The translations under genes were made by a program, and so were the position numbers. Positions 10,143-10,490 of a DNA stretch of 15,263 nucleotides are shown one piece after another (position 1 is the stretch's first letter; every line of letters starts with the position of its first letter). The notes below the pieces were generated by a model. That model had not been told where the DNA came from and ran no database searches. It saw nothing but the letters and a program-made list of their open reading frames with translations. The stretch lies in IMG/VR virus record IMGVR_UViG_2529292726_000023, positions 1 to 15,263 of that record; one strand, given 5' to 3'. This DNA is from a virus. Taxonomy: Duplodnaviria; Heunggongvirae; Uroviricota; Caudoviricetes.

Positions 10143-10171
10143 TTGCAGTATTAATTCTGTAACGTTATTAT
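10143..10171 (+). promoter_or_regulatory. Candidate sigma70 promoter for the tRNA array
   Basis: -35 TTGCAG (10143-10148), 17-nt spacer, -10 TATTAT (10166-10171), about 9 nt before the first tRNA. Confidence 0.45.
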
Positions 10172-10180
10172 TCTGTGCGC

Positions 10181-10256
10181 GGCCCTTTAGCTCAGTGGTG
10201 AGAGCGAGCGACTCATAATCGCCAGGTCGCTGGTTCAAATCCAGCAAGGGCCACCA
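10181..10256 (+). tRNA. tRNA with CAU anticodon, most like tRNA-Ile2 (lysidine type; a plain scan would call it Met)
   Basis: 76-nt cloverleaf GGCCCTTTAGCTCAGTGGTGAGAGCG...CTCATAA...GGTTCAAATCCAGCAAGGGCCACCA; anticodon CAT at 10214-10216; encoded CCA; resembles enterobacterial ileX/ileZ. Confidence 0.85.
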
Positions 10257-10257
10257 A

Positions 10258-10334
10258 CTGCCACTAGCTCATCAGGAAAGAGCGTCAACCCTTTAAGTTG
10301 AGAGTGCGAGGTTCGAGTCCCCGGTGGCGGTCCA
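10258..10334 (+). tRNA. tRNA-like gene with noncanonical anticodon loop CCTTTAA (position 33 is C); anticodon reads UUU (Lys) by standard numbering; identity uncertain, possibly a pseudo-tRNA
   Basis: Acceptor CTGCCAC/GTGGCGG (one G-U pair), D-stem GCTC/GAGC, anticodon stem TCAAC/GTTGA, T-loop TTCGAGT with one A-C mismatch in the T-stem, encoded CCA. Confidence 0.5.
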
Positions 10335-10336
10335 GT

Positions 10337-10412
10337 GCCGACTTAGCTCAGTAGGTAGAGCAACTGACTTGTAATCAGTAGGTCACCAGTTCGATTCCGG
10401 TAGTCGGCACCA
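10337..10412 (+). tRNA. tRNA-Thr (anticodon UGU)
   Basis: GCCGACTTAGCTCAGTAGGTAGAGCAACTGACTTGTAATCAGTAGGTCACCAGTTCGATTCCGGTAGTCGGCACCA; perfect acceptor stem; loop CTTGTAA; encoded CCA. Confidence 0.85.
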
Positions 10413-10415
10413 TGT

Positions 10416-10490
10416 GCGGGCATCGTATAATGGCTATTACCTCAGCCTTCCAAGCTGATGATGCGGGTTCGATTCCCGCTGCCCGCTCCA
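10416..10490 (+). tRNA. tRNA-Gly (anticodon UCC)
   Basis: GCGGGCATCGTATAATGGCTATTACCTCAGCCTTCCAAGCTGATGATGCGGGTTCGATTCCCGCTGCCCGCTCCA; loop CTTCCAA; closely resembles the enterobacterial tRNA-Gly(UCC) sequence as I recall it. Confidence 0.9.

Follow-up and report, generated by a model that had tools for sequence, protein, structure and literature searches.

That lambdoid phages carry tRNA cassettes in the slot between Q and the lysis genes has been known since the genome sequences of Shiga toxin (Stx) phages became available, and papers on Stx phages mention these tRNAs in passing, together with the idea of codon compensation. One such cassette is ileZ-argN-argO, found in Stx and lambdoid phages of the 933W type (for example Stx2a_WGPS8), for whose history we drew on GenBank annotations; another is the array of the PPompW prophage of E. 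coli O157, with tRNA genes for Met/Ile2, 'Lys', and Arg (UCU). Here we describe an array of four tRNA genes, tRNA1 to tRNA4, in a stretch of 15,263 nucleotides (nt) of a Caudoviricetes virus, a lambda-like prophage of E. coli (IMG/VR record IMGVR_UViG_2529292726_000023, positions 1 to 15,263), which we call the window. As a feature the array is ordinary, being a variant of the ileZ-argN-argO cassette that is common and for which RefSeq and the GenBank records of phages already have annotations, and it is its composition that is unusual. The cassette is a chimera, in which the promoter, tRNA1, and tRNA2 belong to a phage lineage while tRNA3 and tRNA4 are copies of host genes. We consider it probable that it is a phage polycistronic tRNA operon that supplies minor tRNAs and in which tRNA2 is a decaying or weakly active passenger.

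Detection of the four tRNA genes

All four genes lie on the plus strand and were found by both ARAGORN and Rfam, where the tRNA family RF00005 has a gathering score of 29 bits: tRNA1 (10181-10256, anticodon CAU, Ile2 type) scores 72.5 bits, tRNA2 (10258-10334, anticodon UUU, called Lys by ARAGORN) 40.4 bits, tRNA3 (10337-10412, Thr(UGU)) 73.8 bits, and tRNA4 (10416-10490, Gly(UCC)) 64.9 bits. The array is not due to chance, because four adjoining matches have E-values from 1e-5 to 7e-15. The genes are separated by spacers of 1, 2, and 3 nt, and each encodes its CCA end. The close packing that an initial annotation had reported from the sequence alone was thus recovered by both programs, neither of which rejected a cloverleaf. 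A permissive Rfam search of positions 9380-10800 returned only these four tRNAs and spurious antisense matches to 'Plastid-ycf2' lying on them. The anticodon loops of tRNA1, tRNA3, and tRNA4 have 7 nt, with U33 and a purine at position 37; tRNA2 alone departs from this, with C at position 33. Folding of single sequences was used for terminators and hairpins only, as the minimum-free-energy fold was not a cloverleaf even for the well-formed tRNA1.

The identity of tRNA1 is supported by its relatives, since other E. coli copies that are 89.5-92% identical to it, which we take to include chromosomal genes of the ileX/ileY type, are annotated as tRNA-Ile by PGAP; this supports its predicted assignment to Ile2. 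In DH5alpha its sole match belongs to the weakest class of those tRNA-Ile copies.

Over positions 1-12057 the window shares 99.97% identity with the E. coli 510016 chromosome, in which PGAP annotates the array as tRNA-Ile, tRNA-Lys, tRNA-Thr, and tRNA-Gly, and the remainder of the window follows phage PhiR47_1, whose array is 99.3% identical to ours. About 600 of 5,426 complete E. coli genomes (about 11%) hold at least 80% of positions 10130-10500.

A chimera of phage and host tRNA genes

The array occupies the same position as ileZ-argN-argO, downstream of Q and before the lysis genes or stx, in agreement with the initial annotation, which had placed it in the slot of ileZ-argN-argO/stx; it is moreover homologous to that cassette. 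In both cassettes the first gene is ileZ, to which tRNA1 is 100% identical, preceded by the same promoter hexamers at the same distance. The segment comprising the promoter, tRNA1, and tRNA2 is about 85% identical between the two, and the gene in slot 2 is a homologue of argN. However, the second gene of the window is not argN(UCG) but has the anticodon UUU and a C at position 33, argO (UCU) is replaced by copies of thrU and glyT, and spacers of 7-13 nt are reduced to 1-3 nt. In addition, the window cassette is followed by no toxin gene and has a different 3' trailer that contains two conserved hairpins. The resemblance to the PPompW array is closer: it has the same ileZ and a slot-2 gene of the same C33/UUU lineage, and the two are 93.8% identical over the promoter, tRNA1, and tRNA2. 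In contrast, PPompW keeps argO in slot 3, and its slot-2 copy has lost one base of the D stem and is unannotated in RefSeq.

The host origin of the right half, which the initial annotation had missed, is evident from the fact that tRNA3 and tRNA4 are 100% identical to thrU and glyT of K-12. In both cases the identity covers the mature tRNA only and ends within 1 nt of its ends, with flanks that have at most one T in common on each side, so that two members of the array are exact host copies without any flanking DNA. In the host operon thrU-tyrU-glyT-thrT-tufB the two genes have the same order and strand; however, they are 209 nt apart there, with tyrU between them, and 3 nt apart here, where neither tyrU nor thrT is present and the 116-nt spacer is missing along with the native promoter and flanks. 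The array is therefore not a copy of the whole host operon with its native flanks, an origin that the initial annotation had named as one that would refute its reading; it comes near to one only in that thrU and glyT are exact. The two genes may have been captured as DNA, with tyrU lost later, or by way of processed tRNA.

Phage phi467 carries only Thr-Gly and the same 3' trailer, located after stx, and for this reason we regard the right half of the cassette as a separate module. The junctions between alternative arrays fall at, or within 1-2 nt of, the tRNA ends. The cassette turns over by swaps of whole genes, in which single tRNAs are exchanged and the junctions coincide with the ends of the mature tRNAs. 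tRNA genes commonly serve as attachment (att) sites, and the position of these junctions is what could be expected if the array were a target for the integration of other mobile elements, a role that the initial annotation had suggested. The window, however, contains neither att-like repeats nor duplicated pieces of tRNA genes, the array has no integrase gene or foreign insert next to it either here or in PhiR47_1, and the ISEc20 insertion of PPompW lies downstream of the array and not inside a tRNA gene. We consider this role extremely improbable.

In 13 related arrays tRNA4 has substitutions in the acceptor arm, at position 6 and close to the 3' end, which appear to be a compensatory change of the acceptor stem and would indicate structural constraint. 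In the more distant phage HK639 (L129, 1337-1491) we observed a tRNA-Asn(GUU) gene downstream of the Q terminator, unlike the host asnT, followed by a copy of glyT that is intact in its 3' half but degenerate in its 5' half. This decayed copy is not called by ARAGORN, and the same two-hairpin trailer element follows it. tRNA genes therefore turn over in the same slot of distant lambdoid phages.

The second tRNA, an argN derivative with a UUU anticodon

The second gene had been described as noncanonical in the initial annotation, and it is so in several respects: its anticodon loop is CCUUUAA, with C33 in place of U33 and the anticodon UUU, compared with CUUCGAA and the anticodon UCG in argN; its T stem has an A.C mismatch at 51:63; its discriminator base is U73; and its Rfam score is the lowest of the array. 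The substitutions that separate it from argN include compensatory pairs, in which 7:66 changes from U-A to C-G, 30:40 from G-C to A-U, and 27:43 from U.G to U-A. In an alignment of 30 distinct slot-2 sequences, 96.2% of the cells expected to pair in the cloverleaf are paired, compared with 29-53% in slid controls, and the lineage has therefore evolved as a real tRNA. Folding of tRNA2 as a single sequence (z = -0.8) is uninformative.

The closest canonical relatives are a UCU form built on the same UCAAC/GUUGA stem and a single form with the anticodon UUU that has U33 and a fully paired T stem (L011), and whose loop is the canonical CUUUUAU. In this phage tRNA lineage an Arg anticodon (UCG or UCU) is being exchanged for UUU, and the rare C33 has been gained. 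An anticodon of 8 nt, or a shifted one that would read as the ochre suppressor UUA, is ruled out by the 5-bp stem UCAAC/GUUGA, which fixes a loop of 7 nt. According to the rules of tRNA identity, C33 and U73 make decoding by tRNA2 and its charging by lysyl-tRNA synthetase (LysRS) doubtful, and its function is accordingly doubtful.

Decay is visible among the relatives of this gene. Sub-lineages of the C33 clade carry U8C or a deletion in the D stem, and in ileZ-X-argO arrays slot 2 is often unrecognisable, with the anticodon arm replaced or deleted, or is an argN/argO chimera. The tRNA2 gene itself is unannotated or labelled 'tRNA-OTHER' in some RefSeq genomes. In one scan of species-representative genomes, the UUU pattern of slot 2 was found only in E. 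coli and Shigella flexneri. The commonest slot-2 sequence sampled (L016, L127 3021-3101, and about 25 other loci) is a relative of argN of 80-81 nt with AGACGACACGATAACAGGGTTGTTGG in place of the anticodon arm and a changed T loop. It goes undetected by ARAGORN, is labelled 'tRNA-OTHER' by PGAP, and must be either a pseudogene or a tRNA-like RNA of an unusual kind.

Promoter, terminators, and expression

The predicted promoter of the cassette (10143-10171, plus strand) consists of a -35 hexamer TTGCAG (10143-10148), a 17-nt spacer, and a -10 hexamer TATTAT (10166-10171), exactly as previously noted in the initial annotation. It is followed by a G+C-rich stretch of the kind seen in the discriminators of stable-RNA genes, with a predicted start 2-4 nt before tRNA1. 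Some 200 loci or slightly more yielded 56 distinct upstream sequences for comparison. Of these, 51 have the -10 hexamer TATTAT, and a -35 element TTGC(A/G)N is kept at the fixed distance of 17 nt, while the spacer and the upstream DNA vary. Upstream of -39 the identity falls from 82-96% to about 52%, so that cassette homology begins at the -35 hexamer, and the DNA further upstream belongs to at least eight unrelated contexts, including the 3' ends of methyltransferase genes, terminators, and others. The conservation of the hexamers across unrelated contexts supports a predicted promoter that the cassette brings with it. The promoter had been called a good sigma70 promoter; comparative conservation favours this description, but its own match to the consensus does not. 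A promoter-like sequence with a better match (TCGGCA-16-TATAAT, 10404-10431, 10 of 12 consensus positions) lies inside the Thr and Gly genes, with TATAAT in the D arm of glyT, and was taken as coincidental.

Terminator-like hairpins followed by U runs are found on both sides of the array, in agreement with the initial annotation, although the upstream one is weak. The latter (10042-10062, plus strand) has its stem at 10042-10054, GCCGC-UGA-GCGGU, followed by U8 (-6.3 kcal/mol, z = -1.3). We assign it to the Q module because homology with prophages that have the same Q and different cargo extends to 10102, and it is probably the tR' of the Q/pR' module. The pR' promoter would lie between 9913 and 10040, where TTTACA-16-TATGCT at 9978-10005 is a candidate. 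The downstream intrinsic terminator (10697-10722, plus strand) is GCCCGC-UUUU-GCGGGU followed by a U run; its hairpin (10697-10712) has -11.5 kcal/mol and z = -4.0, and none of 200 shuffled sequences folds as well. This terminator lies 60 nt before the start of the holin gene at 10782. Between the array and this terminator lie two long trailer hairpins (10497-10542 and 10550-10621, plus strand; -22.5 and -26.3 kcal/mol, z = -4.5 and -4.4), which have no match in Rfam and may act as a signal for processing or persist as a stable RNA of the 3' trailer.

With these elements, the expression of the cassette can be outlined as follows. The conserved sigma-70 promoter would start transcription a few nucleotides before tRNA1 and yield a precursor in which the four tRNAs are followed by about 230 nt of structured trailer, up to the terminator 10697-10722, which in the lysogen would keep the holin gene off. 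Given spacers of 1-3 nt and encoded CCA ends, cuts by RNase P at the 5' ends would part the tRNAs and 3' exonucleases would trim the few bases left over. Upon induction, replication and read-through by Q-antiterminated transcripts from pR' would give a large late burst. The initial annotation had argued from the flanking terminators that the array is expressed independently of late transcription; this is unlikely, since the upstream terminator lies in the Q module and is probably tR', and late transcripts should therefore also traverse the array.

The 30-mer at 10039-10068, which holds the upstream terminator, occurs twice in PhiR47_1 (L001, 5324-5353 and 6001-6030), with one copy right after its own, different Q gene and the other right before the tRNA cassette, and in L016 and other loci a similar terminator directly adjoins the -35 hexamer of the cassette. 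This 30-nt segment may be a recurrent recombination joint between modules.

Sequence diversity across the arrays

The least variable gene of the array is tRNA1, with a nucleotide diversity (pi) of 0.004-0.005. The value for tRNA2 is 0.020, compared with 0.005-0.008 for the other three tRNAs and 0.027 for adjacent unstructured DNA, while the two trailer hairpins, at 0.003 and 0.007, are below tRNA2.

These values bear on the possibility that the cassette is largely neutral cargo, kept because it costs nothing and is linked to the mosaic junction where the Q and lysis modules meet, and of no selected benefit, with slot 2 in particular a pseudogene. The many broken forms of slot 2 and its drift at the rate of non-coding DNA are in line with this view, as are the close relatives that have the same Q and holin modules without any tRNAs, the duplication of host genes by the Thr and Gly copies, and the half-decayed glyT copy kept by HK639. 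On the other hand, neutrality is hard to reconcile with a tRNA1 that is near-invariant over thousands of E. coli records, with Thr and Gly copies that are 2.5-4x less diverse than tRNA2 and the adjoining spacer, with the apparent compensatory change in the acceptor stem of the Gly copy, with promoter hexamers retained despite changing spacer and upstream DNA, or with the presence of the array in about one in nine complete genomes. On balance, we consider it unlikely that the cassette as a whole is neutral.

Codon use and the supply of minor tRNAs

If the cassette is a tRNA operon of the kind favoured here, it would most likely boost three minor tRNAs, reading AUA, ACA/ACG, and GGA/GGG, for phage or cargo genes that over-use these codons, with tRNA2 most likely a decaying or weakly active passenger. 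Codon use in PhiR47_1, which has the same array, was compared with a host sample of only 23 genes: AUA is used 1.5x as often in the phage (odds ratio 1.51, p = 0.02), ACA 1.7x (1.68, p = 1.5e-4), GGA 1.65x (p = 2.7e-4), and GGG 2.5x (17.6 vs 7.0 per 1000). In the same comparison ACA reaches 26.8 per 1000 in the tail-fibre/lom region. In the genes of the window the enriched codons are AUA (9.6 per 1000), GGA (12.4), and GGG (15.1), and the endolysin gene just downstream has 7 AUA in its 176 codons. The supplementation of rare codons that the initial annotation had considered is thus plausible for Ile2, Gly, and Thr, whose codons are modestly over-used. It does not extend to the UUU tRNA, which codon supply leaves unexplained because AAA is used 1.0x as often in the phage as in the host sample.

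Several observations weigh against this reading of the cassette. In the genes of the window itself ACA is not enriched (6.7 vs 7.6 per 1000), and in the comparison above AGA (2.2x), AGG (4.8x), and CGG (1.8x) are enriched equally or more, yet the array has no tRNAs for them; the codon enrichments are modest and non-specific. Moreover, tRNAs identical to single-copy host genes contribute dosage at most. The promoter TTGCAG-17-TATTAT matches only 8 of 12 consensus positions and is absent from the list of the consensus scan. As for the passenger gene, every sampled member of the C33 clade has the same loop, CCUUUAA, even where the probe used to find it did not select for the loop, and this could reflect constraint and not decay. 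An A.C pair is likewise present in the T stem of the host thrU, which also speaks against plain decay.

tRNA-cleaving nucleases as an alternative source of selection

In classical P2-lambda interference, tRNA-ThrU is the lethal target. Lambda is blocked by P2-OLD, which cleaves the tRNA-ThrU of the host at paired CNG motifs of the anticodon stem (PMC12445682); Thr(UGU) is its prime target. The PARIS nuclease AriB mainly targets Lys(UUU) and Thr(UGU) (PMC12409363). The determinants of AriB are U36AAUC|A41 and U16, and the tRNA-Lys of phage T5 escapes through U39A, A41C, and U16C (PMC12409363). Mutations of the loop have been proposed as a means by which phage tRNAs escape anticodon nucleases (PMC10264068).

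The anticodons of tRNA2 and tRNA3 therefore raise a second possibility, namely that the cassette is a counter-defence set that sustains phage translation under attack by tRNA-cleaving nucleases of the host or of competing P2/P4-type elements. tRNA2 would then be a UUU decoder on the body of an Arg tRNA, without the features of tRNA-Lys that the nucleases recognise, and the thrU copy would buffer scarce tRNA-ThrU. tRNA2 has U36AAGUU41 (G39, U40, and U41) and C16, and its anticodon stem is CAA/UUG, with no CNG motif, while argN has CAG/CUG; it thus lacks every mapped determinant of AriB and OLD and, judged by its sequence, should escape recognition by AriB and P2-OLD. The positions at which it differs from host tRNA-Lys include 16, 39, and 41, those that make the T5 tRNA-Lys uncleavable, and the T5 type likewise brings UUU and UGU anticodons in a phage-borne array. 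A phage that does not over-use AAA and still carries a UUU tRNA also fits this possibility better than codon supply, which cannot account for that gene. Finally, HK639 has in the same slot the non-host-like tRNA-Asn(GUU), the third target of AriB.

Further support comes from a second lineage, found in seven viral contigs, where G35U has given the thrU copy itself the anticodon UUU and its discriminator base is A73. If counter-defence were the explanation, this lineage would be a convergent solution. Its members are L143 (3402-3711, minus strand), L159, L172, L176, L202, L236, and L237. The thrU-derived gene carries G35U and A26G, and its loop in the L143 lineage, CUUUUAA, is the same as that of E. 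coli tRNA-Lys. The array there consists of Ile2, a Lys-like gene on an argN body (with A51-U63 restored and G73), a second Lys-like gene on the thrU body, and Gly.

Other observations speak against it. The Thr copy of the window is identical to the host thrU and so presumably cleavable, and related arrays show no changes in the Thr anticodon stem. The determinants that tRNA2 lacks differ because of its Arg ancestry in argN and not because of escape evolution; it drifts near the neutral rate, is visibly degenerate in sister lineages, and, as said above, may be neither charged by LysRS nor able to decode. In contrast to the T5 case, the phage of the window is a temperate lambdoid, its Thr copy is host-identical, and its UUU tRNA has C33, U73, and relaxed constraint. 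None of the papers cited here names Ile2 or Gly(UCC) as a target, and the match to nuclease targets was spotted post hoc among many systems that target tRNAs. We therefore hold a counter-defence role of the cassette to be rather unlikely. The more specific proposal, that an Arg-tRNA body re-targeted to AAA serves as a substitute for tRNA-Lys that escapes recognition by the Lys-specific nucleases, of the Toprim and anticodon types, of competing P2/P4-type elements (PARIS AriB, P2-OLD, and PrrC), while the thrU copy buffers tRNA-ThrU, appears to us quite doubtful. Its interest is that Lys(UUU) and Thr(UGU), as targets of PARIS and P2-OLD, would provide a hypothesis for those tRNAs of temperate phages that rare codons do not explain. 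Should counter-defence fail, what would be left is a modest case of codon supplementation in which one gene is a passenger in decay.

Genomic surroundings

The cassette and its 3' trailer fill a variable slot for cargo (moron) genes at 10103-10770, between the Q/tR' module and the holin gene. These limits follow from L126 and L127, prophages with the same Q and holin modules, in which homology with the window is lost at 10102 and regained at 10771. In prophages of this type the slot contains a DNA methyltransferase gene, with or without ileZ, 'tRNA-OTHER', argO, and TerB. On the left, Q is located at 9017-9382 (PF06530). On the right, the holin gene, of the phage-21 type (10782-10997, PF04971), is followed by a gene of the YdfR family, the endolysin gene, and Rz, in this order.

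Between Q and the presumed pR'/tR' lies an open reading frame of 148 amino acids on the minus strand (9466-9912, 37.8% G+C), antisense to the late operon and with no match in Pfam. Its product has a hydrophobic N-terminus (MNKMTVLLLSAT), and it is conserved along with the Q module (WP_001038608.1). It looks like another cargo (moron) gene.

In strain 510016 (L002), whose complete genome is the one nearest to the window, the endolysin gene is interrupted by ISEc62, an element of the IS21 family, at the point where identity with the window stops, while the endolysin, Rz, and terminase region of the window is intact, like that of PhiR47_1. The prophage of the window is therefore from a related strain and less degraded than the one in 510016.

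Far upstream of the array, Rfam identifies isrK (3505-3581, 67 bits) and the C4 antisense RNA (3606-3693, 83.6 bits) within an open reading frame of 383 amino acids (3145-4296) that PGAP assigns to the 'Rha family'. The Rha domain starts at residue 223, and a Pfam 'Ash' match to amino acids 117-213 overlies the RNA genes; a terminator-like sequence, GCGCTCTTGCGGTTTTTTT, is found at about 3561-3581. This reading frame is probably over-extended, and the region looks like an immI module of the P1/Gifsy type, in which small RNAs are followed by an antirepressor/Rha gene from about position 3751.

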